DNA of 64,000 nucleotides from Ostreococcus lucimarinus (taxonomy: Eukaryota): assembly GCA_000092065.1 (NCBI GenBank), contig CP000601.1; one strand, written 5' to 3'. Shown piece by piece: positions 2,148-39,232 of this stretch. Both the position numbers and the translations under genes were made by a program. The notes beneath the pieces are model-generated. The model searched no databases and had not been told where the DNA came from. It saw only the letters and a program-made list of their open reading frames with translations. The number at the start of each line of letters is the position of its first letter. Position 1 is the stretch's first letter.

Positions 2148-5100
2148 ATGGCGCCGTTTCTCGGTGGTATGCGCGGCCTGACGGTGTTCGTGCAAGACGT
2201 GCGGAACTGCAGTAATAAGGTGCGGCGAGCGCGCGCGCGCGAGGGATGACGACGACGGGCGAGGGCATTCGATCGAACGAAACGACGCGCGGTGACGCGT
2301 TGAGCGGCGAGAGCGCGAGAGAGAGGCGCGCGGACTGACGACGAGGGTCGCGCGCGTCGCGAACGCGAACGCAGGAGCAAGAGCGCGCGCGCGTGGAGAA
2401 GGAACTGGCGAATATTCGACGGAAATTCAATAAGACCCACCGCGCGCTCACGGCGTACGAACGGAAAAAGTACGTGCTGAAGCTGCTGTACATATACATG
2501 CTCGGGTATAACGTGGACTTTGGACACACCGAGGCGCTGAAGTTGATATCGGCGTCGTCGTACGCGGAGAAACAGGTTGGGTACATGACGACGTCGGTGA
2601 TATTGAACGAGAGAAACGAGTTTTTGAGAATGGCCATCAATAGCATACGCACGGATGTGATCTCGAGCAATGAGACGAATCAGTGCTTGGGGTTGTCGTG
2701 CATCGCGAACGTCGGGGGGCGGGAGTTCGCGGATTCGTTAGCTGGGGACGTGGAGACGATTGTGATGACGCCGACGATTCGGCCGGTGGTTCGGAAAAAG
2801 GCGGCGCTGTGTCTGTTGAGGTTGTTTCGTAAGAATCCTGAAATTTTACTCGCGGAAACGTTCGCGTCAAAAATGACCGACTTACTCGACGCCGAGCGCG
2901 ATTTGGGGGTGCTCATGGGCGTCTTGGGTTTGTTGCTGGGTCTCGTGCAGCACGATTACCGAGGGTACGAGGCGTGCGTGCCCAAGGTCATCGCGTTGTT
3001 GGAACGATTGACGAGGAATAAGGACATTCCGCCCGAGTATTTGTACTACGGTATTCCCTCTCCATGGTTACAGGTGAAGTGCATGAAGATTTTGCAGTAC
3101 TTTCCCACACCAGACGATCAGGCGCTGCTCGATTCGCAGCTCATCGCCATGCGAAACATCCTCACCAAGACGGACACGGTGAAAAACTTCAATAAGAACA
3201 ATGCGCTGCACGCCATCTTGTTCGAGGCGATCAATTTAGTTACTAGCATGGACTACGCGCACGAACTGTTGGACCCGTGCGTGGAGATTCTCGGGAATTT
3301 TCTCGACATGAAGGAACCGAATATTCGCTACTTGGCTCTCAACACGCTCAACGCCCTCGCGGCGATGGCGGATTTGCGAGAAGCCATAAAGGTGTACCAA
3401 GAGCAAGTCGTGGCTGCGTTGCACGACGCGGACATTTCCATTCGTCGCCGCGCGTTGACTTTATTGTTTTCTATGTGCGATGCTTCCAACGTGCACTCTG
3501 TCATCGAGGAGCTCATCAAGTACTTCGTCACCGCTGATTTTGACATTCGCGAGGAACTGGCGCTCAAAACGGCCATCTTGGCCGAGCGCTACAGCGTGAA
3601 CGATCGCATGTGGTTCATTGAGATCGCGATGCAAATGATAGACAAGGCGGGCGATTTCATCAACGACGACTTGTGGCATCGCATGGTGCAAATCGCAACC
3701 AACGACGCGTCGCTTCACGGTCGCACGGCGCAATTGATGTTCGTCAAGTTGCGCGACGAGGGCGCGTCGAACGAACTCATGCTTCGCGCGATGTCGTACT
3801 GCATCGGAGAGTTTGGGTATTTGCTTCCCATTCCCGCGTCGCAGTACGTCGATCTCTTAGTGCCACTGTTCCAGGATACGGATGAGGTCACGCAGGGCAT
3901 CATGCTCACAGCCTTCGTCAAGGTTGCGATGCACAAGAATTGCGATCAGGCGTCGATGGGTAAGATCGTGAAGGTGTTCACCGACATGAGCTCATCGTTT
4001 GACGTCGAGTTGCAGCAACGTGCAAACGAATATCTGAAGCTCTTGCGTCTCGGACCGAACATGCGACCGATTCTCGAGCCCATGCCCGAGTACCCTGAAC
4101 GTTCGAGCGTGTTGGAGAAGCACATACAAGTAGAAAACGTCGCCTCGGACGTCGCCGCGGGAGTTCGTAAACTTGCCATGAGTGGTGTCGTGACGGCGAG
4201 AGAGCAACCCCGCGCTCAGGCGCGGTCGGCGCCGGCGCTTCCTGCAGCCGCAGCACCGCCGGTCGATGCCGTCACAGATTTGCTCGGCAACTTGATGGGC
4301 GACGGATCTTCGGCGCCGGCGGCGCTTCCGCCGTCGTCGACTGGGATGAATCTCGACGAGCTTCTCGGAAACGCCCCTCCCGCACTTCCAGCGGTAGAAG
4401 AGCGTCTCGCACTTCCGAGTTCCACGTCACCTCCCGCGGGGCCGGTGACGACCACATCGTCCGCAGACGCTTTAGACGATTTACTAGGCTTAGGCGCGCT
4501 CGCGGCGACGCAACCGCCGCCGGCGACGCACGGCGACGCCTTAGACGCCTTTGGAGCTCTGGGTGCGCCGGCGCCCGCGGCGCCGGCACCGACGCAACCC
4601 GTGGCACCGGTACAATCATTGACGTCGAGCGACGGTATTCAACCCACGGTGAACGTTCAAGACTGCGCGAAACGGTTCCTCATCGCCGACAACGGCTTGC
4701 TGTATGAAGACGCGAACGTACAGATTGGCGTGAAATCGCAGTGGCAAGGGTCTCAAGGTCGCGTGATGTTCTACGTTGGGAACAAGTCCGCGAGCGCGGA
4801 TCTGCAAAACTTCAGAATGGTCATACCGTCGATCGAAGGCTTGCGTCACAGTCTTCAACCCTTCCCCGCGTCCATCGGACCGAAGCGCCAGGTGCAGTTG
4901 ATGTTGCAAGTAGCGATTACGTCGGCGTTTGCCTCGGCGCCAAAACTCGAGTTTTCGTACACGTCCACCGCCGTCGCGGCGGCGTGTGCCAGGTCTCTGG
5001 AGTTGCCCGTACGTGTGACCAAGTTTTTGAGCCCGATGACCATCGCTTCGCCGCAAGAGTTCATCGCCAAGTGGCACCAGATGGCGTCCGCCGGGCAGCA

Positions 5101-11400: not shown

Positions 11401-11891
11401 CCAAAATGAAACTAGGCTCGTACGCGGGAGGCCCCGTGCGCGGCGACTCGGTGAACTCGCGAGACGCGTGGTCGCTCGGACAAGGCGACGACGATGATAT
11501 CGCGGAGCTGATTCATCATCGTTATGATAACGAACGCGAGTACGACGGTGGCGCGCCTTGGGTGCGTAAGACCGGTTCAAAGATATACGGCGGCGACGCC
11601 GCGACCGCGAAGCGAGGCTCTCGCGGCACGCGCCAGCGCGACGGCGGACATTACGGCGTACCAGTGGTCGATGTTCGCGCTTTGGGGGTTGGAAGCGACT
11701 ACAATCACGTCGAAAACAACGCGTTCGGGCACTCCGACGCGTTCGTCGCGGATGATCATGAGTGGGACTCCGCCTCCGACGCCGACACGCTCGACGACGA
11801 CGCGTCGACGCAGCGAAGTCAATCCTTTAGCGATTACGAGAACGATGATCAACGATTCGACGGCGCCAGGCGACCGGCATGGCTCGACTAG
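8439..11891 (+). CDS. OSCA: OSCA/CSC1/TMEM63-family hyperosmolality-gated cation channel (RSN1_TM, PHM7_cyt, DUF221 architecture)
   Basis: True ATG is at 8439; the track M at 8421 is a GTG. TM0 is followed by a cytosolic RRM-like domain (TVLVTGLPSD..EEVRCFFALRFGTVADVVLV ... CSAFITFETEGSKIDCI) and then multiple TM helices (YNWLWVSFCITLMNVLLEWIVPLL.., FFAIMMSVTIRILARVL). Has a long low-complexity C-terminal tail. No intron seen. Confidence 0.85.
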   Translation: MDTNWTPATPARARADARIASDKVLSTKAFEDARVKDHRDVERERGVYLPPSAEEAATHADSAQPRLLSEDGKLEKLKYFDSEVDLGLEFGAGVSGYFFVLRAFACLFFAAFALNLPAMFINYTSTYYASHYEAEPETATAPTADALSGRPTTSFHSWFVDWHWANPMSASLGTVAPDDVPQRAWVLAGTTSGVLRWSSSKIDFIRFSVVMDVVVSLIIILSVPVIMLVLMRTERRVERGTATLKDYTVLVTGLPSDATDEEVRCFFALRFGTVADVVLVKTECMQINAQRRRRRLLEDYDEAEAALIAAGNRGGDGTKTAIENEILAVDRKLKRRRARTRAKQCSAFITFETEGSKIDCILRNTRSIMSYIFAFPRKERFRGKRKYRVRDAPEPEDVRFENLNLSNRSWRRLVVLFSCSAVVLLCYGFLKMLVDDKEKLWENADMMVTTLADDVGIVVAHGNPVEQFETHKNQFRTACRARLDQCGVAFSKDKTYVGMPWGAPIYAFYDYPNATLLDRRYAQQDAVRDLTNCAQDTNRCPGGPTMQNCHACYCASLKYGLTSEVVRAYNKAIRHSCAKYVNLGPGEYYNWLWVSFCITLMNVLLEWIVPLLVAAERLRTRSATKVLKTKIIFWVRYLNVAVIYGLLNANFYHIGRYFPLIKQMFGLKGEYADFTSEWFNDVGLVLFFAIMMSVTIRILARVLVDIITHVGRKFSVAYCHTQAKLNKAFEGPSFDTGAKCGDVCFTIMAAMTFSSGMPLIYLVLSMYFVLVYLYDYRLLLKVCKLPERSKSTLPMTAAKVLFISVSIHALIGLWMFSYHWTPDLAKPTKDFEHSSKNNAPPLAYEIGGEILNPPHDNGALTAIVQSTGVATTYFHQYRDATVGALSAGDFVAPPPRVQLRFAERPFSEAGMPFMGMFFALLGVMGLWQIAVAWHNWGKSRRDIARSWKNLPQYHEAIMTGLIVGSETYRPEYQPDYAFLFDKSTVAAAKMKLGSYAGGPVRGDSVNSRDAWSLGQGDDDDIAELIHHRYDNEREYDGGAPWVRKTGSKIYGGDAATAKRGSRGTRQRDGGHYGVPVVDVRALGVGSDYNHVENNAFGHSDAFVADDHEWDSASDADTLDDDASTQRSQSFSDYENDDQRFDGARRPAWLD

Positions 11892-12226
11892 GACGAAACG
11901 TACAGTGTAAGAAAACATAGCGTATTCATAGCGACAATCATAAAACGTGGTCACACTACAAACGCGGTCTGTTCGCGCTCCCTCGCCGGCGCCGCGTAAA
12001 AAACTAAACAACATCACGATTCACCATCAACGCGCGCGCGTCATCGGAGCACGAACTTCGAACACTCACTATGAAGTCGATTTCGTTCGATGCCCGTCAC
12101 GTGCGCGCGCGCCGCGGCGTCGTTTCGTCGTTTCTTCGTTCGCTCGCGCGTCCCGAAGGCCACGTCACTTTAGATAACGTAACCTTTCGCGCTCACCGCG
12201 CGCTCGAACCGAGCTTCGCCGTCCCG

Positions 12227-16771: not shown

Positions 16772-17044
16772 CGACGTTTCGCCGTCTTTCGCGCGCGTCG
16801 CGCGGCGATTCCGCGCGCCGACGCCGCGCGCGCCCGTTATAAAGCCTTCGCGACGCGCGCGCGCGCCGCGGTCGCGCTCGACGCGACGCGCGCCGCGTCG
16901 CCGCGTTTTGAAGCGCTGGAAAGTGTGCTTTTCGCTCGCAGTCGCGCTCGGCGCCGCACAGCGCGACGACGACGCGCGCCCGGACGCTCGCGCGCGCCGC
17001 GACGAATCCCCGAGACGACGCCCGAGCGAGCGTCGGCGCCGACG

Positions 17045-21063: not shown

Positions 21064-22383
21064 TCAGTACTGCTCCGCGAACACGACGTCATCGCTGCGA
21101 TAGTTCTTCTTCTTCTTCTTCAGTCTCACGTTCAGGATCAAGTGCACTTTGCGATTGAGCGCGCGCTCGAGCATCGCTCTGGCGTTGATGCCGATTCGCC
21201 CGACGACTTCGCCCGACTTTCCGACGACTATTTTCCTCTGCGACGCGGTGTCGACTAAAATATTTTGCTCTATGCGCGCGTCACCGTTTCTAAAGTCTTC
21301 CCACGAGACGTGCGCGATGTCGATGCCGTACGGTAAATCTTCGTGCACGCCGTCGTACACGCTCTCGCGCACGATTTCCAGCGCCCTCTGCGCCGGCGTC
21401 ATATCGCTCGTCGACGTCGCGTCGAACTCCCACGGCGCCTCCCGAGCGCCGGCGACGATGTGATCCATCAGCGCTCTCGTTCCCGCCCCCGTGAGCGCGC
21501 TGACGGGAAACACGCGCGCGAATTCAAAATCCCCCGCGGCGCGGAAATCGTCCACCATCTTCGTCAACCCCGCGCGTCGCTCCTTCGGAATCTTATCAAC
21601 CTTATTCAGCACCAGCACCGCCTCCGGCGGCGCGCGCATCTCCCCCAGCGCCGCTCGCGTCTTTCGCACCGCCTCCAGCACGCGCAAATCCCGTCGCTCC
21701 AACTGTCTCGCCGCGTCCACGACGAAGACCAACGCGTCGCACTCGCTCGCCAGCGCCGTCGCGTCCTCCACCTTTCTCGCGTGCGCCGCGTTCCTGTAGT
21801 GCTCGCGCCCCACGATCCCCGGCGCGTCCACGAACACCACCTGCGCGTCCCCGACCGTGCGCACCCCCAGCGCGCGCGTCCGCGTCGTGTTCGTCTTTCG
21901 ACTCACCGCGCTCACCGCGTCGCCGACGAGCGCGCACGCCAGCGCGCTCTTCCCCGCGTTCGGCGCGCCCAGCACGCCGACCCGCGACAACTTTTCGACG
22001 CGACGCGCGCCGTCGTCGCGGTACGCGCCGTCGCGCGCGTCCGCGCGCGCCGTCGCGTCCCACGCGCGCGCTCGCCGCGCCGCCGCCGCCGCCGCCGCGC
22101 GCGTCGACCGCGCGATCGCCGCCGCCACCGCCGCGCGTCGACGCTTCGACTCCAGGTACGACGACGACGGCGCGCACCGCGACGACGTCGTCCCGTCGCA
22201 CGCGCCGCGCGCGCGCGCGCCGCGACGCCACCGCGACGCCGGCATCGACGACGACGTCGATTCGCGCCCTTCGCCGCCGCCGACGCGCGGCGCGGCGTCC
22301 GCGACCGCCGACGCGCCGCGCGCGGGTCGCGACGCGTTCGACGCGCCCGCGACGACGCGACGAAGCGCGCGCGACGCCGACAT
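21064..22383 (-). CDS. ERAL1: Era-like GTPase (ERAL1/Era family) with a C-terminal KH domain and an N-terminal organellar presequence
   Basis: G1 VGVLGAPNAGKSAL, G2 T, G3 FVDAPGI, G4 VLNKVDK, G5 SAL. KH domain RKIVVGKSGEVVGRIGINARAMLERALNRKVHLILNVRLKK. The start is chosen at the ATG (reverse complement of 22381-22383; MSASRALRRVVAG..). The upstream 183 codons of the track ORF (TTG start) are GC-rich low complexity. Start confidence is moderate. Confidence 0.8.
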   Translation of the reverse strand: MSASRALRRVVAGASNASRPARGASAVADAAPRVGGGEGRESTSSSMPASRWRRGARARGACDGTTSSRCAPSSSYLESKRRRAAVAAAIARSTRAAAAAAARRARAWDATARADARDGAYRDDGARRVEKLSRVGVLGAPNAGKSALACALVGDAVSAVSRKTNTTRTRALGVRTVGDAQVVFVDAPGIVGREHYRNAAHARKVEDATALASECDALVFVVDAARQLERRDLRVLEAVRKTRAALGEMRAPPEAVLVLNKVDKIPKERRAGLTKMVDDFRAAGDFEFARVFPVSALTGAGTRALMDHIVAGAREAPWEFDATSTSDMTPAQRALEIVRESVYDGVHEDLPYGIDIAHVSWEDFRNGDARIEQNILVDTASQRKIVVGKSGEVVGRIGINARAMLERALNRKVHLILNVRLKKKKKNYRSDDVVFAEQY

Positions 22384-23171: not shown

Positions 23172-23768
23172 ATGTGCCTGATCACGGACGAACACGGGAA
23201 CGCGCTTCCGGCGCTCGCGCGGTCGCCGGCGATGGGAACGTCGTCGAGCCGGGTGAAGGTGCCCTCGCCGCGGCGAGACGCGGCGGCGCGACGGGACGTC
23301 GCGAGCGCGCCGGCGTCGCCGCGCCGCGCGCGACGCGCGCCGAAGCGCGAGGACGCGAACGCGCGCGTCGAGTTTCGTCCGCGCGCGGTCTCGCGCGACG
23401 CGCGAAAGCACCGGCGCGCGAAGAGCGAAGAGGCGCGCGCGCGGGACGTCCCGAGACGAGAACGAGAACGAGAACGAGAACGCGCGGGGACGCTTTTCCA
23501 AGATTTCGACGCGCTCGGGATCGAACGGCGCGACGATTCGTCGGAATCGTCGCGCGCGGACGAGGGCGAACGACGCGCGAAGCCTCGCGTGGGTTACGCC
23601 TCGGTGGCGCCGATGAAGGAAATTCTACAGACCCGCGGGGGCTCCGCGCTCGAGGCGCTCGGGATTTTATTTCGAGATTCCGATCGAGAATTCGAGCGCG
23701 CGGCGGCGACGACGACGCCGTCGAGCGATGATTATTCTCGTCGTCTATCCTCGCGAGACGCGCTGTGA
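23172..23768 (+). CDS. Hypothetical low-complexity protein (198 aa) with an RE/RS-rich central region
   Basis: An ATG at 23172 opens an ORF with consistent G/C third positions: MCLITDEHGNALPALARSPAMGTSSSRVKVPSPRR.. RERERERE (from a (GAGAAC)4 repeat) ..FQDFDALGIERRDD..GYASVAPMKEILQTRGGSALEALGILFRD... No family recognised. The surrounding region is packed with overlapping GC-rich spurious ORFs, so confidence is low. Confidence 0.3.
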   Translation: MCLITDEHGNALPALARSPAMGTSSSRVKVPSPRRDAAARRDVASAPASPRRARRAPKREDANARVEFRPRAVSRDARKHRRAKSEEARARDVPRRERERERERAGTLFQDFDALGIERRDDSSESSRADEGERRAKPRVGYASVAPMKEILQTRGGSALEALGILFRDSDREFERAAATTTPSSDDYSRRLSSRDAL

Positions 23769-32808: not shown

Positions 32809-33036
32809 CTCACAGCGATAAATTTTTTAAAGTACTATCCGTCACCCCGAAACGACGAAAGTCACAGTGTTGTCGTGTCGCTTTTCCATCACGGACAATC
32901 GGGTGTGGGAAAAAGTAAGGTGTGATGTCGACACATCTCTTCCTGCGGGTTTCGATCCCGCGGCTTCCAGATCTCTATCGGAGCAGCCGTCATATTCGAC
33001 GGAGACTTTTTCCTAACAGTCTGACACTCTACCAGC
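32809..33036 (+). repeat. 228-bp dispersed repeat, copy 1 of 2 (same orientation as copy 2; about 98.7% identical)
   Basis: Alignable base-for-base with 38744-38971, with three mismatches. Contains a ZDRE-type palindrome ATGTCGACAC at 32925-32934, several hairpins (CCGTCATATTCGACGG; GCGGGTTTCGATCCCGC) and a T-arm-like GGATCGAAACC on the minus strand. Immediately preceded by the 13-bp palindrome CCCCCCATGGGGG. Confidence 0.85.
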
Positions 33037-33066
33037 AAAATTGTTTACAGAGATACCGCGACGAGA

Positions 33067-33530
33067 TTGAAGCAATACAAGGAACTCGATGGGCACCTGA
33101 TGAACGCCTCCGTGTGGGACGAGTATTTGACCCCAGAGATGCTCAGTCTGTATAATCCCGAAACAGACCAATTCGAGGAGCCCAAGCACTGGCTAAATGG
33201 GAAGCGTGTAGGAATTGCAATACTGGCGGATGATGTAAAATCGAGTCCGTTGCTGTCTAACAAAGCCTGGCGCAACCTGTGTATCAAATGCCGCCACCTT
33301 GGATCCTTCCCTGACAGTTCTCCACCAATAGGGTGCTCGATTTTCTGCGCGAGGTCAAGGACGCCGACGCGACGCTCCCAGACAAGTTGAAAGCCGAGGT
33401 ACCGACCATGCTTCAGAAAGGCGTGCGCGCGTATCTGGATTAAGCTTCACAAGTACCGTGGTGTGGGTAACATCTGGGACATCTTATCGAAATAATTCAT
33501 CGATGTTCGCCAGGAGATCGAGGAACAGGT
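33067..33530 (+). pseudogene. Decayed gene fragment(s): protein-like translations that switch frame, no intact ORF
   Basis: Frame 1 reads MKQYKELDGHLMNASVWDEYLTPEMLSLYNPETDQFEEPKHWLNGKRVGIAILADDVKSSPLLSNKAWRNL... A second frame reads ..RVLDFLREVKDADATLPDKLKAEVPTMLQKGVRAYLD*. These are non-repetitive, protein-like sequences separated by a frameshift and stops. No homolog recognised, so this is speculative. Confidence 0.25.
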
Positions 33531-33666
33531 GCCGTAAATTACGAAGAGCGTTTCGATTTACAATTTATATGATCCTCTAGCTTGAAAAATAGATCTCCGT
33601 CAGTGGCCGTGGGTGTGTTTGCCACAACTTGATTTGATAGTAATTGACATTTTTTTACCGCTCTCA

Positions 33667-35100
33667 TTAGTGCGCGTGTGCGTGTGAGTCTCCGCCACCG
33701 CCACCGCCTGTGCAATGCTTGTGGTTGAGGAGCACGAGACTGATGGCAACAACGCCGACGATGAAGGTGAGAATGCTCGTCGCGCGAAGACGAGGTGAAG
33801 TGGCGCTCACTGATACTCGGGGCATGCACTCTGCGGCGGCGATTTGCAGATAGACTCCAGCACCGAAGGCGAGCAGCAGTCCATGCCAGAAGTCGTTGTT
33901 ATTTCCCGATCCAACACTAATGAGGACGCCAAGAATGACACTCAAGCCGGAAACGAAGTTTAAAGTCAGCGTCGGCAACGGCGCGAGATCGCCCTGGAAG
34001 GGGTCTACGAGCACCAAGTAGTCAGCAAGCTCTTGAGCGATTTCGTGATAGACGGTCGCGGCGGTGATCGACCATCCCATGGTACTGTCGCAGTTCAGAA
34101 AGCCGAAGCCAATGAAAATACCATCCACTAGGTTGTGCATGAAATCTCCAAGAATGATACCACTTCGAACGCGATACTTGTGTGAGTTACAAGTACAAGT
34201 ATCACAGTCATCTTGAGCGCCTTTGACTGCAAGTTCCGCATCGGTTGTCTTCGCTGTATTTCCAAGAGTTGGGAACACGACAGAGATACCAAAGTCGATG
34301 AAGTAGGCCATGAGAAAGCCGAAGATAGAAGCGGAAGCCCACCATGCGGTCTGCTCTGCCTCATCCGAGCCAGCAGGTTTGATTAAATGCGTGGCTTCGT
34401 AGAACATCAGATAAAACGCAGCCGAAAGAAGTGCGCCGGCGGCAAACGAGTTAATTGTGCAACTCACAGTTTCAGGGTACGCTTTCTGCTTCTTAGCGAT
34501 ACTCGGGATGAGAAAGACCACACCAGAAAGTGTGACGATATTGACGATAATTGCCGCCCCAATGGCGTTGGCCCACGGTTTTGATTTCGATTCGCTCACG
34601 GTGGATGCTTCGGGAAGTGAAGCTTTTGGCACCACGTCATCTCCGTGGAGGTCCTTGAGATAGTGCGCGTCGCGCTCGAACTCGGTGGGAACGTGCTCAG
34701 CGAAGATTGAGATCGCGTCGATGCCAGTCGTATTAATCTTAAACGGCGTCGTGTGCCAGGTGTTGTCAAATTCAAGGTTGACACACCCACTATCAGGTGT
34801 CAAAACACTATCTCGTATCTTAGCCGTCGTACAAGCTCCCCCGATTGCGGTATCACCGCTATCCTCGCGGGCTTCGAGCTCGTCGTGTCCGGCGGCGATT
34901 TCGTCGTAGATGACCATTTTCATGGTATCGGCGGCGTACTTATCGGCCACCTTTTGCGCCTGCCACACGTATTCATTCTCTGGCGTCTCAAAGATTCCAG
35001 CCCATTCGAATGCGTGCGCGCCGGACGCGTGCGCGCCGCGCTGCGCGAGCGCGCTCGCGACGATCGCGATGCCACCACCGAGCGCGCTCGCGCAGCGCAT
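33667..35100 (-). CDS. ZIP: ZIP-family (ZRT/IRT-like, SLC39) divalent metal (zinc) transporter with an N-terminal signal peptide
   Basis: Signal peptide MRCASALGGGIAIVASALAQRGAHA. Large extracytosolic N-domain, then ZIP TM core with the signature HNLVDGIFIGFGF and HEIAQELADYLVL. Cytosolic loop with CDTCTCNSH, and a C-terminal GGGGGGDSHAHAH. ATG is the reverse complement of 35098-35100; an alternative upstream ATG at 35196 would put MTNENTKNTKTT.. before the signal peptide. Codon usage is atypical for this genome: C/T-ending GCC, GAT, GGT, ACT rather than GCG/ACG. Confidence 0.8.
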   Translation of the reverse strand: MRCASALGGGIAIVASALAQRGAHASGAHAFEWAGIFETPENEYVWQAQKVADKYAADTMKMVIYDEIAAGHDELEAREDSGDTAIGGACTTAKIRDSVLTPDSGCVNLEFDNTWHTTPFKINTTGIDAISIFAEHVPTEFERDAHYLKDLHGDDVVPKASLPEASTVSESKSKPWANAIGAAIIVNIVTLSGVVFLIPSIAKKQKAYPETVSCTINSFAAGALLSAAFYLMFYEATHLIKPAGSDEAEQTAWWASASIFGFLMAYFIDFGISVVFPTLGNTAKTTDAELAVKGAQDDCDTCTCNSHKYRVRSGIILGDFMHNLVDGIFIGFGFLNCDSTMGWSITAATVYHEIAQELADYLVLVDPFQGDLAPLPTLTLNFVSGLSVILGVLISVGSGNNNDFWHGLLLAFGAGVYLQIAAAECMPRVSVSATSPRLRATSILTFIVGVVAISLVLLNHKHCTGGGGGGDSHAHAH

Positions 35101-35325
35101 CGTTCGCCCTCGTCGTCGCTCGACCGTCCTCGCACCGCGTGCGCGTTCGCGCGGCGGCATCGTCGTCTTCGTGTTCTTCGTGTTTTCGTTCGTCATCGTT
35201 TCCGTCGTCGTCGTCGTCTTCGCCGGCGTCGGTAAGTGCGGCTGCGCACAAACTAAAGCGGCATACGAACCGAACCGGCGCGATGGAGGGCGGTCGTTTA
35301 TAAGTCACGACTCGCGAACGACAAA

Positions 35326-35482
35326 ATGTCGACATCCGCCGCAGTGTCGACACATCTCGGTGGTACTTGGATATGTCGAAATATGTCGACATGTGCGTCG
35401 AGACGTTTTTCGTATATAGATGCATCACGGGGTTCAATGCGTACACGCGCGTGGGTAAATATGTCGACATGCGTGTCGACAT
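35326..35482. promoter_or_regulatory. Cluster of five perfect Zinc-Deficiency-Response-Element motifs (RTGTCGACAY) in the shared ZIP/COG0523 divergent promoter
   Basis: ATGTCGACAT at 35326-35335. GTGTCGACAC at 35344-35353. ATGTCGACAT at 35383-35392, preceded by the half-site ATGTCGAAAT. ATGTCGACAT at 35461-35470. GTGTCGACAT at 35473-35482. All are 10-bp palindromes matching the Arabidopsis bZIP19/bZIP23 ZDRE consensus. They lie 130-380 bp upstream of the ZIP ATG and 180-330 bp upstream of the COG0523 ATG. Confidence 0.6.
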
Positions 35483-35546
35483 GTTTACGACGCGCGTCGC
35501 GACGCGATCCGTGATGGGCTTCGCGGGGCGTCGCGTACGACGATCC

Positions 35547-35589
35547 TCGACACGTGCACGACGCGAATCGTCGACACGTGCACGACGCG
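35547..35589. promoter_or_regulatory. Duplicated 19-bp motif TCGACACGTGCACGACGCG (half-ZDRE fused to a CACGTG G-box/E-box), 70-110 bp upstream of the COG0523 ATG
   Basis: Two copies separated by 5 bp: 35547-35565 and 35571-35589. Each contains CACGTG, at 35551-35556 and 35575-35580. Confidence 0.4.
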
Positions 35590-35658
35590 CGCGCATCGCC
35601 GCACTTCGCGACGCCTCTTCGGCTCGTTCGCGCGCGGAGACGTCGATCGCCGTACATC

Positions 35659-37299
35659 ATGTCCACACCCGCCGCAATCGCCAATCATAATCGATTGCCG
35701 GTGACAACGCTGTGCGGGTTCCTCGGCGCTGGGAAGACGACAACTCTGAAACGCGTGCTCGAAGCTAAGCGAGACGCGAACGGAAAGTTTCGGTGTGCCG
35801 TCGTCGTGAACGACGTCGCGGAGTTGAACATCGACAAAAAATTAATCGATGATTCCGCTTTGCTGCAGAGCGACGAGGTGGTTGCCATGCAGAACGGATG
35901 CGTGTGCTGTTCGTTGAGCGGAGACTTTGTAAAACAAATCGGGGACATGGCCAAGAGTGGCAATTTTGACTACATGATCGTAGAGGCATCAGGAGTGTCG
36001 GAACCGGCGGAAATTGCGAAACTCTTCGCAAATTGTGAGGACGATCACGATCATGAAGCTGCGCACGTTGATGAGCATGAACATTTGAGCACACTGGCGC
36101 GGCTGGATACGTGCGTGACGGTCATCGCTGCAGGTGACTTTCTCGACATGATTGATTCTTTCAGGGCGTCAGCTGTGAACAGGCAGTCTTACTCTCAATT
36201 GTTGGCTGAACAGATAGAGTACGCGAATGTCGTCGTATTGAACAAGGTCGACACTGTCGATGACGAACAACTCGCCGAGATTAAAGCGCAGATACAACTT
36301 CTCAATTCACGTGCTGATATTCTTGAAGCTGTGAACGGCGCGATCGACGTTACGCGAATCGTCAATACAAAACTTTACAAAGAGAATGACTTTGCTGGTT
36401 TCATAACATGGGAACAAGAGATAGAAGCAACATCTGTGAAGTCATGCTGCGCCGGCGCTAGGGACAAAGGTGAGTCTCCATGCTGTAAGCGAGCTCGCAT
36501 GAGAGAAACAGCCTTAAGCGAGGTCACGCTTGCACCAAGTTCTTCCCAAACACGTCACGATAGTCGGTTCGGTATTACGTCTTTCATTTACCGAGCCAGA
36601 AGACCTTTTCATCCCAAACGGTTTTTAGGCTCATTTGTCGAGCGCTTCTTCAGCTCCCTCGAGGCCGATGACCGTGATGAAGAAAAAGATGAAGAGACAC
36701 CAAGTGTAGACTGGAGTGCAGTGAAAGATATTCGAGCGCGACAAGAAGCGATGAAACTCAAGCGCCGTAAAAGGGAAGGTGAAATTGGTGTGCTGCTACG
36801 TTCGAAGGGTGTAACGTGGCTCAGTGATGCCCACGACTTGATAATTGTTTTCAGTCAGGCTGGTAATATTTACTCTCTCGAAGGATCAAGCCGATGGACC
36901 GCGCTGAATAAAAATGCTTGGGTCGGCTCACAGGGGATAAAGCAAGAACTTCGTAAAGACTGGGAGGGGCCTTATGGTGATCGCCGACAAGAACTGGTGT
37001 TCATTGGCAAGGATCTTAAATACGATGAAATTCAATCAACGTTGGACTCTTGCCTCTTGACCGACGAAGAATTCGAAATGGGTTCTGATGGCTGGAGAGC
37101 AGTCATGGGTGATGTCTTTCTAGACGAAGACGACGAAGACGAAGACGACGAAGTCGATGACGAAGACGACGAAGAAATCGACGAAGATTTGGTCGACGAC
37201 GAGGAGATCGAAGAGGAGATCAGGCCGCAACCCACTTCAAAGTCGAAGGCAAAACCAAAGGCAAAGTCGGCGCCCTCTCAAAACGACGGCTTAGTCTGA
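35659..37299 (+). CDS. ZNG1: COG0523/CobW-family GTPase (ZNG1-type zinc metallochaperone) with a His-rich linker and a long poly-acidic C-terminal tail
   Basis: ATG at 35659. P-loop GFLGAGKTT, metal-binding GCVCC, switch/NKVD motif VLNKVD. His-rich stretch EDDHDHEAAHVDEHEHL. CobW_C domain GITSFIYRARRPFHPKRFLGSF .. WLSDAHDLIIVFSQAGNIYSLE. Acidic tail DEDDEDEDDEVDDEDDEEIDEDLVDDEEIEEE. Atypical codon usage with many A/T-ending codons. The internal GTGAGT..TTTTTAG is not an intron, because the in-frame read-through encodes the conserved CobW_C motif. Confidence 0.85.
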   Translation: MSTPAAIANHNRLPVTTLCGFLGAGKTTTLKRVLEAKRDANGKFRCAVVVNDVAELNIDKKLIDDSALLQSDEVVAMQNGCVCCSLSGDFVKQIGDMAKSGNFDYMIVEASGVSEPAEIAKLFANCEDDHDHEAAHVDEHEHLSTLARLDTCVTVIAAGDFLDMIDSFRASAVNRQSYSQLLAEQIEYANVVVLNKVDTVDDEQLAEIKAQIQLLNSRADILEAVNGAIDVTRIVNTKLYKENDFAGFITWEQEIEATSVKSCCAGARDKGESPCCKRARMRETALSEVTLAPSSSQTRHDSRFGITSFIYRARRPFHPKRFLGSFVERFFSSLEADDRDEEKDEETPSVDWSAVKDIRARQEAMKLKRRKREGEIGVLLRSKGVTWLSDAHDLIIVFSQAGNIYSLEGSSRWTALNKNAWVGSQGIKQELRKDWEGPYGDRRQELVFIGKDLKYDEIQSTLDSCLLTDEEFEMGSDGWRAVMGDVFLDEDDEDEDDEVDDEDDEEIDEDLVDDEEIEEEIRPQPTSKSKAKPKAKSAPSQNDGLV

Positions 37300-37399
37300 T
37301 GTCTTTCTAGGTGACACTGAAGCGGAACAGGGTGGAGATGTGGACTCGGGCAACTCTTCCGACATGTAAGCTTGTCCTTTATAGTGAGCCCACACCGAT

Positions 37400-37696
37400 G
37401 TGAGCGCAAGTCATTTTTATGCACACAGTGACATCTTCATCGAATACCAGACGTGGTTGCCAGCGGCTGCGCGCGGTCAAGATAGCGCGACGAAGGTCGG
37501 CAATAAGCTCAAGGACTTCTTCAAGAAGGAAAAGGGCCACAGGGTCCCAATGGAAGAGGACCACCTGAGGCAAGGTAGAGACGAGAAGGGCGTCTATTGG
37601 GAAATTCACCGCGACGGGTGCTTCGAGTGGCTGAAGGACAATGGGTACACAGGGGAGACGGAGCTCGCGCCGGCGGTCGTCTGGTGCTCATACTAA
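37400..37696 (+). CDS. Small hypothetical ORF (98 aa) inside the atypical cassette
   Basis: MSASHFYAHSDIFIEYQTWLPAAARGQDSATKVGNKLKDFFKKEKGHRVPMEEDHLRQGRDEKGVYWEIHRDGCFEWLKDNGYTGETELAPAVVWCSY. Non-repetitive and protein-like. No family recognised. Lies between the COG0523 gene and a MITE-like element. Confidence 0.25.
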   Translation: MSASHFYAHSDIFIEYQTWLPAAARGQDSATKVGNKLKDFFKKEKGHRVPMEEDHLRQGRDEKGVYWEIHRDGCFEWLKDNGYTGETELAPAVVWCSY

Positions 37697-37761
37697 TTTT
37701 GTAATTCGTACATTTGCAATATGAAGACTCAACGAGACACCAAAAAGACCATGGTTTGGAT

Positions 37762-37942
37762 CCTGACGAAATGACGAATGACGAACTGTTTTCATAAAGG
37801 TCCACACTGTTGCTTGTCATAGATCTAAAATAAAAATAAACATTAAAATATTTTAACATTTCGTCATTTTCATCATTGGTACACACAAAGTGTCACCGAA
37901 CGACGGGTTGACGAATTTGTGGACGACAAAACAAGTTCGTCA
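37762..37942. mobile_element. MITE-like element: 181-bp AT-rich segment bounded by 17/18-bp terminal inverted repeats
   Basis: Left end CCTGACGAAATGACGAAT at 37762-37779. Right end TTCGTCATTTCGTCAGG at 37926-37942. The right end's reverse complement is CCTGACGAAATGACGAA, 17 of 18 matching. The interior is AT-rich (..ctaaaataaaaataaacattaaaatattttaac..) with further GACGAA/TTCGTC palindromes. No coding capacity. Confidence 0.4.
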
Positions 37943-38130
37943 TTTCGTCAGGTCTCGACGGATCACGAACGTCCAGGTGTGAAATCAGGCGGTTCGGTAT
38001 CTACATTCCGGACCTTGCAGCCCACGCAGCGATACGCGTACCTATGGTCTCTCGGATGTGACTGCAAACCGCAGGAGGAGGCACTTTTGGCAACAATATT
38101 TTCTTAGGGATAGATAGGTAACCAGGACAA

Positions 38131-38628
38131 ATGCCGTCGGGATGCGTGTACGAAATGTTTAGCGATAATGCGAAATGTAACAAAACGTACATCGGATCGA
38201 CGACGGGTTCGCTCAGAGCGCGCCTTGCCTCGCATAAATACGCACGACATCCAATCTTCACGTTTGGCGACGCGGACGTGAGAGTTCTCGAAAAGGACAT
38301 TCCAGCTGGAGAGCTCCATCAACGTAAAGGTGCCTACATGAGAGAGAAGCGTGACGGCTTATTCAACTCCCGAGCTGCTGGACGCAGCCAGAAACACGCG
38401 TGCCGCGAGAACGTGGACGAGAGTCCAGCCTACAGCAGAGCTCAATATACGCCGAAGCGGGACGGCGGCGATGGTAACTACAGACAACTCAATTATTACA
38501 AGCAGCACGCAAAAGGAATACTGCGCAAGACGTGCCTCAAGAATGCCCGAGCGCGCGGCACGCTGCCTTCGAAGCGCAGTCTCGACAAGTATCAATTTAC
38601 GGTAGATGAGTTACGCGGCTTGGCTTGA
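38131..38628 (+). CDS. GIY-YIG domain nuclease (homing-endonuclease-like), 165 aa
   Basis: ATG at 38131. N-terminal GIY-YIG motifs GCVYEMFSDNAKCNKTYIGSTTGSLRARLASHKY (GIY .. YIG-S-T .. R .. H). A basic C-terminal half follows (KRDGGDGNYRQLNYYKQHAKGILRK..). Atypical codon usage. Sits between a MITE-like element and the second 228-bp repeat. Confidence 0.7.
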   Translation: MPSGCVYEMFSDNAKCNKTYIGSTTGSLRARLASHKYARHPIFTFGDADVRVLEKDIPAGELHQRKGAYMREKRDGLFNSRAAGRSQKHACRENVDESPAYSRAQYTPKRDGGDGNYRQLNYYKQHAKGILRKTCLKNARARGTLPSKRSLDKYQFTVDELRGLA

Positions 38629-38743
38629 CCACTTCACTCACACGATTGGTTCTGGAGAAATCTTACATGCGGTACATCAACGTCGATGTGCGGTTTTATC
38701 ATGTTGGGGTGCCCCAACTCAAAAAAAAAGTTTATTTTTATTA

Positions 38744-38971
38744 CTCATAGCGATAAATTTTTTAAAGTACTATCCGTCACCCCGAAACGACGAAAGTCAC
38801 AGTGTTGTCGTGTCGCTTTTCCATCACGGACAATCGGGTATGGGAAAAAGTAAGGTTTGATGTCGACACATCTCTTCCTGCGGGTTTCGATCCCGCGGCT
38901 TCCAGATCTCTATCGGAGCAGCCGTCATATTCGACGGAGACTTTTTCCTAACAGTCTGACACTCTACCAGC
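38744..38971 (+). repeat. 228-bp dispersed repeat, copy 2 of 2
   Basis: About 98.7% identical to 32809-33036. ZDRE-type ATGTCGACAC at 38860-38869. Preceded by an A9 tract and AT-rich sequence. Ends 262 bp upstream of the ATG of the 39233 gene. Confidence 0.85.
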
Positions 38972-39232
38972 TGAGTTAAGGAAGACTGTTTATGCATACG
39001 CACAACATCGCGGACATTCGACTGCCCATGCTCTTTATTTCGAGGCTTAACTCGGCGAGGTGGACGAATAATTGGTATTATACGTCGCTCGATGGTGGGT
39101 TTGCGACAGATCTTCGCGGCTTGACGCCGTCGATCCGCGATCGCGAATGTTACAGGTTGAGGGCTCGGGCGAGGACGTCGGTGGTTTTCGCGCGTTCGTT
39201 CGTTCGTCGTCACTCCGCGGTCGAATCCATCG

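Follow-up and report, generated by a model that had tools for sequence, protein, structure and literature searches.

A mosaic insertion in the tRNA-Asn(GTT) gene of Ostreococcus lucimarinus, probably assembled by DNA repair, carries ZIP and COG0523 genes

Islands inserted in tRNA genes are described from bacteria and archaea. In such islands, adaptive metal-uptake genes and selfish DNA lie together in a tRNA gene, an intact tRNA remains at one end, a partial 3' copy of it forms a direct repeat at the other end, the composition is atypical, and the site is empty in close relatives. We analyzed a 64-kb stretch of the genome of Ostreococcus lucimarinus CCE9901 (hereafter the window), in a region syntenic with O. 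tauri chromosome 13, and found a block with all of these features. The block lies between two direct repeats and carries the genes of a ZIP-family metal transporter, a COG0523 GTPase metallochaperone of 546 aa (hereafter COG0523-546) and a GIY-YIG nuclease. It differs from the bacterial and archaeal islands in several respects. It is located in a eukaryotic nuclear genome, no integrase was found, and its cargo would be largely relocated native DNA. In addition, its repeat is long (228 bp), including non-tRNA flank and a tRNA intron.

A second likeness is to the products of fork stalling and template switching/microhomology-mediated break-induced replication (FoSTeS/MMBIR) and of filler-DNA capture, in which segments of unrelated loci are joined and flanked by a duplication of the break region. 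tRNA genes are known in yeast to stall replication forks. The likeness is architectural only: no microhomology is demonstrable at the block junctions, and the segments may be sequential. With moderate confidence, we conclude that the block is a mosaic of about 5.7 kb, specific to this lineage, that was inserted in the tRNA-Asn(GTT) gene and assembled by repair of a break or a stalled fork. Comparison loci and contigs are cited by handles such as L020; population variants were read from metagenome contigs.

The tRNA-Asn gene, its partial duplicate and the empty sites

The two direct repeats, at 32809-33036 and 38744-38971, are 228 nt each and 99% identical, with three mismatches in the same orientation, as reported in the original prediction made from the letters of the window. 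Their boundaries are sharp, the flanking sequence being unrelated on both sides, and no third copy was found in the window or in the unrelated loci compared. The prediction had missed that the repeats contain a tRNA gene. Rfam (RF00005, 49 bits, model positions 1-71) detected a complete minus-strand tRNA at 38872-38985, and ARAGORN with introns allowed identified it as tRNA-Asn(GTT) with a 41-nt intron at position 37/38. Under its default settings ARAGORN found no tRNA in the window; introns had to be permitted.

The repeat boundary at 38971/38972 falls in the D-loop, after tRNA nt 14, and the right repeat therefore consists of the tRNA from nt 15 onward together with 128 nt of the sequence that follows its 3' end. 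The left repeat duplicates this tRNA/flank stretch and is truncated at the 5' end of the tRNA. It lacks the first 14 nt of the gene, and for this reason neither ARAGORN nor Rfam called a complete tRNA there. Along the tRNA strand, the intact tRNA comes first, followed by the insert and the partial 3' copy. Judged from their sequence, the 228-bp repeats represent the duplicated target, a tRNA piece with its flank, and not the termini of a mobile element. Weak Rfam matches to BTH_s1 and ceN82 in the block were far under the gathering scores and were dismissed as chance. The features of the block are given below.

32809-33036, minus strand: left repeat, 228 nt; partial tRNA-Asn copy and copy of the 128-nt 3' flank
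32937-33036, minus strand: truncated tRNA-Asn(GTT) copy, tRNA nt 15 to 3' end, with the 41-nt intron kept
32809-32936: copy of the 128-nt tRNA 3' flank, with one RTGTCGACAY at 32925
33037-33500, plus strand: open reading frame (ORF) fragments from six-frame translation, described as relics; no homolog detected
33667-35196, minus strand: ZIP-family metal transporter gene (PF02535); annotated protein 477 aa, start at 35100
35197-35658: divergent ZIP/COG0523 promoter, with RTGTCGACAY at 35326, 35344, 35383, 35461 and 35473
35659-37299, plus strand: COG0523 GTPase metallochaperone gene, 546 aa (cobW, CobW_C; YjiA match in PDB)
37425-37696, plus strand: 3' end (last 90 codons) of a gene for a PrimPol + DUF5906 (D5-like) helicase, by tblastn
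37762-37952: unit of 191 bp resembling a miniature inverted-repeat transposable element (MITE), with 17-nt perfect inverted ends at 37762-37778 and 37936-37952
38131-38628, plus strand: GIY-YIG nuclease gene, 165 aa (XP_001421138), with family-level PF01541 support
37758-38830: segment of 1,073 bp deleted in a common natural haplotype, from metagenome contigs
38744-38971, minus strand: right repeat, 128-nt 3' flank and tRNA nt 15 to 3' end, with RTGTCGACAY at 38860
38872-38985, minus strand: intact tRNA-Asn(GTT) gene (Rfam RF00005; ARAGORN), with a 41-nt intron at 37/38

The block lies between a gene for a JmjC protein (XP_001421140) and one for an MJ1567-like protein of about 1,020 aa. Orthologs of the JmjC protein, 63-66% identical, led to two loci without the block. 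In O. tauri chromosome 13 (L020), the JmjC gene is separated by a spacer of 524 bp from a gene for an MJ1567-like protein of about 1,061 aa. In a third Ostreococcus-type lineage (L022), the corresponding spacer is 805 bp and the MJ1567-like protein is about 1,118 aa. The gene order is conserved in both relatives: eIF3e, PP2C, p450, carrier and JmjC on one side, and the large gene, a gene of 443/477 aa with no Pfam match, RRM and WD40 on the other. The cassette is thus lineage-specific, as a comparison of synteny proposed with the original prediction could reveal; since the site is empty in O. tauri and L022, the block is an insertion in the O. lucimarinus lineage.

Each of the two spacers contains a tRNA-Asn(GTT). 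In O. tauri it is permuted, occupies 11408-11502 of L020 (minus strand) and has an intervening sequence of 23 nt; this permuted tRNA-Asn has already been listed (PMC3978253). In L022 it is also permuted and lies on the plus strand at 11501-11896. Rfam did not call these permuted or interrupted tRNAs; they were rebuilt by hand and then checked by ARAGORN, which accepts each after the halves are rejoined. One and the same tRNA-Asn locus is therefore permuted in O. tauri and L022 and not in O. lucimarinus. Across the genus, the locus is structurally unstable. The T-loop of the tRNA-Asn reads ATCGAAA in O. lucimarinus and L022, with A54 and A60, residues otherwise characteristic of initiator tRNA in eukaryotes.

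tRNA genes that are permuted or disrupted were reportedly described in Mamiellales and Cyanidioschyzon by Maruyama in 2010 and Soma in 2014. The present locus resembles them in its highly plastic gene structure and in being permuted in O. tauri and L022. It differs in that the O. lucimarinus gene is not permuted, and in that the extra insertions found in natural haplotypes and in L022 carry spliceosomal-type signals, not bulge-helix-bulge signals. Two such insertions segregate among the metagenome haplotypes. One of 100 nt is located in the D-loop of the intact tRNA-Asn (L011, 1807-1906; also L004 and L012-L017), 2 nt from the repeat boundary, which is the entry point of the island. The other, of 87 nt, is located in the T-arm of the left or the right tRNA copy (L003, 1241-1327; also L004, L007, L014, L017 and L019). 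Both read GTAAGT...ACTGAC...CAG on the tRNA strand. In L022, two more insertions, 150 nt and 110 nt long, break up the permuted tRNA-Asn.

Excision of both L022 insertions at the signal boundaries restores a perfect cloverleaf accepted by ARAGORN, and the two haplotype insertions are simply missing from the intact reference gene. All four insertions have GT...AG ends with GTAAGT or GTACGT on the 5' side, and a branch-like CTGAC lies 24-37 nt upstream of the terminal AG. A bona fide intron of RPS26e shares this 3' architecture. No convincing bulge-helix-bulge motif was seen by eye at the insertion junctions. Ostreococcus has only about 44 tRNA genes. With so few, the tRNA-Asn gene may be essential, and the insertions would then need to be spliced out. 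It is conceivable, though we consider it doubtful, that the Ostreococcus tRNA-Asn(GTT) comes from a spliced RNA polymerase II transcript. The position of the D-loop insertion near the entry of the island suggests one fragile or accessible site that takes both introns and large DNA.

The block also stands apart in composition. The G+C fraction in 1-kb windows is 0.48-0.53 across 33-39 kb, whereas 0.58-0.75 is typical. The G+C fraction at third codon positions (GC3) is 0.61 for ZIP, 0.53 for COG0523-546 and 0.60 for GIY-YIG against 0.68-0.86 in 19 flanking genes, and the fraction of G at third positions (G3) is 0.23-0.27 against 0.35-0.51. The three genes are the lowest of the 22 window genes in both measures. 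The lower GC and the contrast in codon use that had been described by eye are therefore borne out by calculation; codon use is not uniform across the window. Other GC dips (2.5-4 kb and 9-11 kb) fall within genes of normal GC3 and, for that reason, are not comparable to the block.

The ZIP protein is identical to XP_001420991, and the JmjC and GIY-YIG accessions given above are likewise exact protein matches in O. lucimarinus. Two sets of accessions exist per window protein. This fits the published finding that chromosome 21 of CCE9901 duplicates parts of chromosomes 9 and 13 (PMC2367439). Outside the block, ARAGORN with introns permitted predicts a tRNA-Leu(CAA) with a 49-nt intron at 16852-16996 on the minus strand, which Rfam does not report at the gathering score. 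Further ARAGORN predictions at 22211-22323 and 23506-23603 are in GC-rich coding DNA and look spurious.

Separate sources of the genes in the block

The original prediction took the block to be of a different evolutionary origin from its surroundings. This holds in part. COG0523-546 looks imported and the GIY-YIG gene comes from selfish DNA, while the ZIP gene is native, so that no single foreign origin fits the block. The family identities assigned to the three genes stood: Pfam supports ZIP and COG0523-546 directly, and GIY-YIG is supported by evidence from its family.

The ZIP protein matches PF02535 with an E-value of 1e-21 (77.7 bits against a cut-off of 35.1). In a search of 1.8 billion representative proteins, its closest relative was 81% identical and the next were at most 53%, mostly below 50%. 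The gene is 78% identical, in protein and in DNA, to a gene in sister lineages (L026-L029) that stands head-to-head with a gene for a 435-aa COG0523 protein. The context of ZIP there is core-like (RPS26e, DnaJ and others) and the locus has a normal GC3 of 0.75. The 435-aa COG0523 of the sister lineages is only 30% identical to COG0523-546. In L036, from a closer and rarer lineage, the N-terminus of ZIP shares 91% identity with that in the window, and an alignable promoter runs to the 435-aa COG0523 gene. Over its first 258 nt (86 codons), ZIP diverges from L036 by 6.2% at equal GC3. Its composition is therefore no mark of foreign origin. These alignments indicate a native origin of ZIP and its promoter, by copying or relocation from the ancestral locus at which ZIP and COG0523-435 stand head-to-head.

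COG0523-546 matches the Pfam families cobW (5e-41) and CobW_C (1e-18), and the nearest solved structure is YjiA. It carries a GCVCC motif (CxCC type), a His-rich stretch and an acidic tail. Its matches are 97-100% identical within the species and then at most 53% identical, in Cymbomonas and other protists, with a bacterial group at 47-49%. No named Mamiellales protein was found among the best 120 matches listed. The GC3 of the gene drops to 0.42-0.46 over its 3' 60%. Taken as sequence, COG0523-546 looks imported, probably from another eukaryote. As for membership in ZNG1, the 435-aa paralog of the sister lineages is an equally good candidate.

A group of 525-aa COG0523 proteins on contigs of about 2.1 Mb was considered as the Micromonas orthologs and was rejected on account of its bacterial gene neighbourhood. 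In this group (L115), the protein is 47-49% identical to the window protein and lies beside cation-efflux and MerC genes. The bacterial setting implies that the subfamily of COG0523-546 is common to bacteria and many protists.

The right part of the block is related to a family of multicopy elements. Window positions 37425-38709 have 93-95% DNA identity to the element contigs (95% to L025), which encode a 733-aa PrimPol + DUF5906 helicase, then the MITE-like unit and then the GIY-YIG gene. A 98-aa reading frame that had been listed as a small orphan ORF proved instead to hold the C-terminal 90 aa of the helicase (tblastn, 93% identity to residues 644-733). It thus appears that this ORF, the MITE-like unit and the GIY-YIG gene together are a 1.3-kb internal fragment of a low-GC selfish element. 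The fragment is truncated within the helicase gene and ends no more than 35 nt from the right repeat. The element family has a GC fraction of 0.49-0.52, the same as the block, and is present in many copies, its clusters counting about 600 members for the helicase and about 900 for GIY-YIG. The contigs L023 (13.4 kb), L024 and L025 also encode a weak EcoRI-methylase-like ORF and several family-less ORFs. No name for this element family was found in the sources searched.

The GIY-YIG protein of the window alone is below the threshold for PF01541 (E = 0.009, 16.7 bits against 22.6). Twelve of 15 relatives match PF01541, the best with an E-value of 6.5e-7, and residues Y7, Y20-G22, R31, H35 and N79 are invariant or nearly so. 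The family comprises 32 clusters, all on Ostreococcus-type metagenome contigs; a paralog in CCE9901 (XP_001421474) is located on another chromosome. The arrangement recalls the free-standing GIY-YIG homing genes of phages and large DNA viruses, which are likewise small ORFs directly downstream of a primase-helicase gene, show presence/absence polymorphism and are co-transferred with the 3' end of the helicase gene. It differs in the tiny size of the family and its confinement to Ostreococcus-type contigs, and homing is putative.

The MITE-like unit had been recognized in the original prediction, and its 17-nt inverted ends are perfect. L023 holds two copies, L024 and L025 a single copy each. 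No target-site duplication was seen at the unit, the flanks being GGAT and TCTC. The prediction of frame-shifted gene relics held insofar as ORF fragments are present at 33037-33500, and failed insofar as these have no detectable homolog: no match was found in Pfam, in PHROGs or by tblastx against the element contigs and other loci. An assignment of this relic as a D5-like helicase C-terminus was dropped for the same reason.

The shared promoter and natural variants of the block

ZIP and COG0523-546 diverge from a common promoter of about 460 bp, in which the palindrome RTGTCGACAY is repeated. The motif occurs seven times in the window against 0.45 expected, and all seven copies are in the block (five in the promoter and one per repeat). 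A pair of copies is conserved upstream of ZIP in L026 (9738 and 9756) and in L036 (468; one copy degenerate). One copy is at the start of the 435-aa COG0523 gene (L026, 8836), and three or four are upstream of a second, Irt1-like ZIP gene (L110-L113, about 4900-5100). No copy of the motif was found in the other Ostreococcus-type loci compared, which total about 100 kb. It thus spans three Ostreococcus lineages and, in the loci compared, is confined to ZIP/COG0523 promoters, apart from the copies in the window repeats.

In land plants, the same sequence is the zinc-deficiency response element (ZDRE; PMC5476651). The likeness to the land-plant regulon, in which bZIP19/23 drive ZIP genes, lies in the identical 10-bp palindrome and its multiple copies upstream of ZIP in three Ostreococcus lineages. 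The difference is that green algae, O. lucimarinus among them, reportedly lack the F-group bZIPs that bind the ZDRE in plants (PMC5476651), and that one of the promoters serves an Irt1-like ZIP gene, iron-responsive in O. tauri; the element is a candidate known here from sequence. No report of RTGTCGACAY in algae was found in the literature. COG0523 genes are induced by zinc deficiency in Chlamydomonas, where the regulators are unknown (PMC2770081). By analogy, we infer that ZIP and COG0523-546 form a metal-deficiency module, with zinc the most likely metal.

The promoter exists in two alleles. Allele A, that of the reference strain (35379-35636), is a stretch of 258 bp that is 99.6% identical to L113 4849-5106, the promoter of the Irt1-like ZIP gene, which lies beside an LHC gene at another place in the genome. 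It includes motif-bearing 78-nt tandem units, whose number varies between contigs. On this identity, allele A would be a copy of the second ZIP gene's promoter. Other haplotypes carry allele B, the ancestral AT-rich version of 313 nt, in place of 35375-35626. The promoter of L036 corresponds to the B allele of many O. lucimarinus haplotypes, and the homology of the B promoter ends about 95 nt before the ATG of COG0523-546.

Contigs assembled from many metagenome samples match the window at about 99.5% identity, and all those that span the site carry the block. A deletion of 1,073 bp (37758-38830) is common (L001, L002, L003, L005, L006 and L008); it takes away the MITE-like unit, the GIY-YIG gene and the first 87 nt of the right repeat. 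Its left edge coincides exactly with the end of the MITE-like unit, and this edge hints at a transposon-associated deletion. In L014 and L017, the loss of 37124-37296 leaves a 507-aa COG0523 variant without the acidic C-terminal tail. The same 87-nt insertion, with a linked single-nucleotide polymorphism (SNP), lies in the left tRNA copy of some haplotypes; another haplotype has both in the right copy.

Origin and meaning of the block

Neither an integrase, a transposase nor a viral relative was found, and the block combines native and foreign pieces. A repair origin is therefore favoured. Under this account, a break or a stalled replication fork at the tRNA gene would have been repaired with captured or template-switched DNA. 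The insertion would have entered at tRNA position 14/15, between the JmjC and MJ1567-like genes, duplicating 228 bp of the target, so that the intact tRNA stayed on the right and a 5'-truncated pseudo-copy on the left. At least four sources would have contributed: the native ZIP gene with its own promoter, from the ancestral ZIP/COG0523-435 locus; COG0523-546, joined to the ZIP promoter about 95 nt upstream of its own ATG; the 1.3-kb internal piece of the PrimPol-helicase/GIY-YIG element; and the decayed ORF at 33037-33500. Assembly may have occurred in one event or in successive ones, later insertions possibly going into neutral DNA. Gene conversion between the repeats and between metal-gene promoters would later have reshaped the block. 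In the resulting arrangement, ZIP and COG0523-546 would be transcribed divergently from the palindrome-rich promoter, and the GIY-YIG part would be dispensable.

The main rival is that a PrimPol-helicase/GIY-YIG element, possibly virus-like, integrated site-specifically in tRNA-Asn, with the repeats as attL and attR, and then decayed, the zinc genes being cargo or later arrivals in the dead element. It is kept alive, with the decayed element as a landing pad, by the classic polarity of intact tRNA, insert and 3'-partial tRNA copy, and by the fragment that abuts the right repeat within 35 nt. The equally low GC and the multicopy nature of the family agree with it, and the relic beside the left repeat could be a lost element gene. 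We nevertheless consider it unlikely. No integrase, recombinase or transposase domain was found in the ORFs of the block, nor a recombinase in the 13-14-kb element contigs, and no tRNA-like sequence in L023 or L024. The retained piece is internal and cut within the helicase gene, and the repeat includes 128 bp of locus-specific non-tRNA flank. Furthermore, ZIP came with its ancestral chromosomal promoter, and no other copy of the element bears zinc genes. Mamiellales have a big and a small outlier chromosome, rich in transposons and rearrangements, and the block could have been built on one of them and then translocated to chromosome 13. The low GC, the low GC3 and the content of selfish DNA would suit such an origin. 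A telomere-to-telomere study of O. tauri also describes blocks, including transporter genes, shared between chromosome 19 and standard chromosomes (bioRxiv 10.64898/2026.07.10.737489). We regard this origin as improbable, since the GC3 of ZIP equals that of its ortholog at the ancestral locus of the sister lineage and translocation alone does not explain the tRNA duplication.

The original prediction had also offered a composite transposon, that is, a repeat-bounded cassette that moves, excises or amplifies through its 228-bp ends. Two contigs at first sight speak for it: L006 and L019 join the COG0523 or the GIY-YIG gene through the repeat to the relic and ZIP, connecting the right-hand entry of the repeat to the left-hand exit as a tandem array or an excised circle would. 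The 87-nt insertion and its linked SNP in either copy also imply exchange between the copies. The junctions of L006 and L019, however, lie inside repeats longer than short reads, and the flank of L006, an LHC/ZIP2 locus, is joined through a promoter segment of 258 bp that is 99.6% like allele A and explains it. Both contigs are probably short-read assembly chimeras and were set aside as evidence of a tandem array or circle, although such a form may still exist. With the repeats being tRNA-gene sequence with its flank, with no transposase, inverted ends or target duplication outside them, and with the cassette at one genomic site in all metagenome contigs except the probable chimera L006, we give a composite transposon very little credence. 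Still less probable is an insertion by a prasinovirus or another giant virus, also proposed before. Large DNA viruses often carry GIY-YIG genes and genes for D5-like helicases. Prasinoviruses, moreover, encode tRNA-Asn(GUU) (PMC3673656). Against this, searches of IMG/VR retrieved no relatives of ZIP, COG0523-546, the helicase or GIY-YIG, the last queried both by single sequence and by profile, and no exact match to the tRNA; a single-sequence query there detects close relatives only. The nearest relatives of COG0523-546 and ZIP are cellular.

Several points weigh against the account of a repair-assembled mosaic or against parts of it. The microhomology at the junctions is minimal or not assessable, and a target duplication of 228 bp is unusually long. 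The mosaic may also have formed elsewhere and entered as a single unit. The imported origin of COG0523-546 rests on the lack of named close relatives, not on phylogeny, and differential loss is possible, the best match being from another prasinophyte. ZIP may have been either relocated or duplicated, and CCE9901 may still have a ZIP gene at the ancestral locus. As for the metal-deficiency module, zinc regulation is putative. The second ZIP gene resembles the iron-responsive Ot-Irt1 of O. tauri (PMC4855317), and the motif may accordingly not be zinc-specific. The copies of the motif within the repeats are polymorphic and may be incidental.

On the reading of a repair-assembled mosaic, the block would be a dated natural case of the assembly of a eukaryotic gene cluster, in which a native importer and an acquired metallochaperone were brought together through the importer's promoter at a tRNA gene. 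Sister lineages still show the ancestral arrangement, and several haplotypes of an intermediate kind segregate in the ocean. The palindrome would be a candidate algal cis-element for metal limitation, in algae that reportedly lack the plant factor. Natural material for experiments is available in the promoter swap, the GIY-YIG loss and the tRNA insertions. Finally, Ostreococcus clades could differ in metal use through the extra COG0523 gene and the rearranged ZIP promoter.

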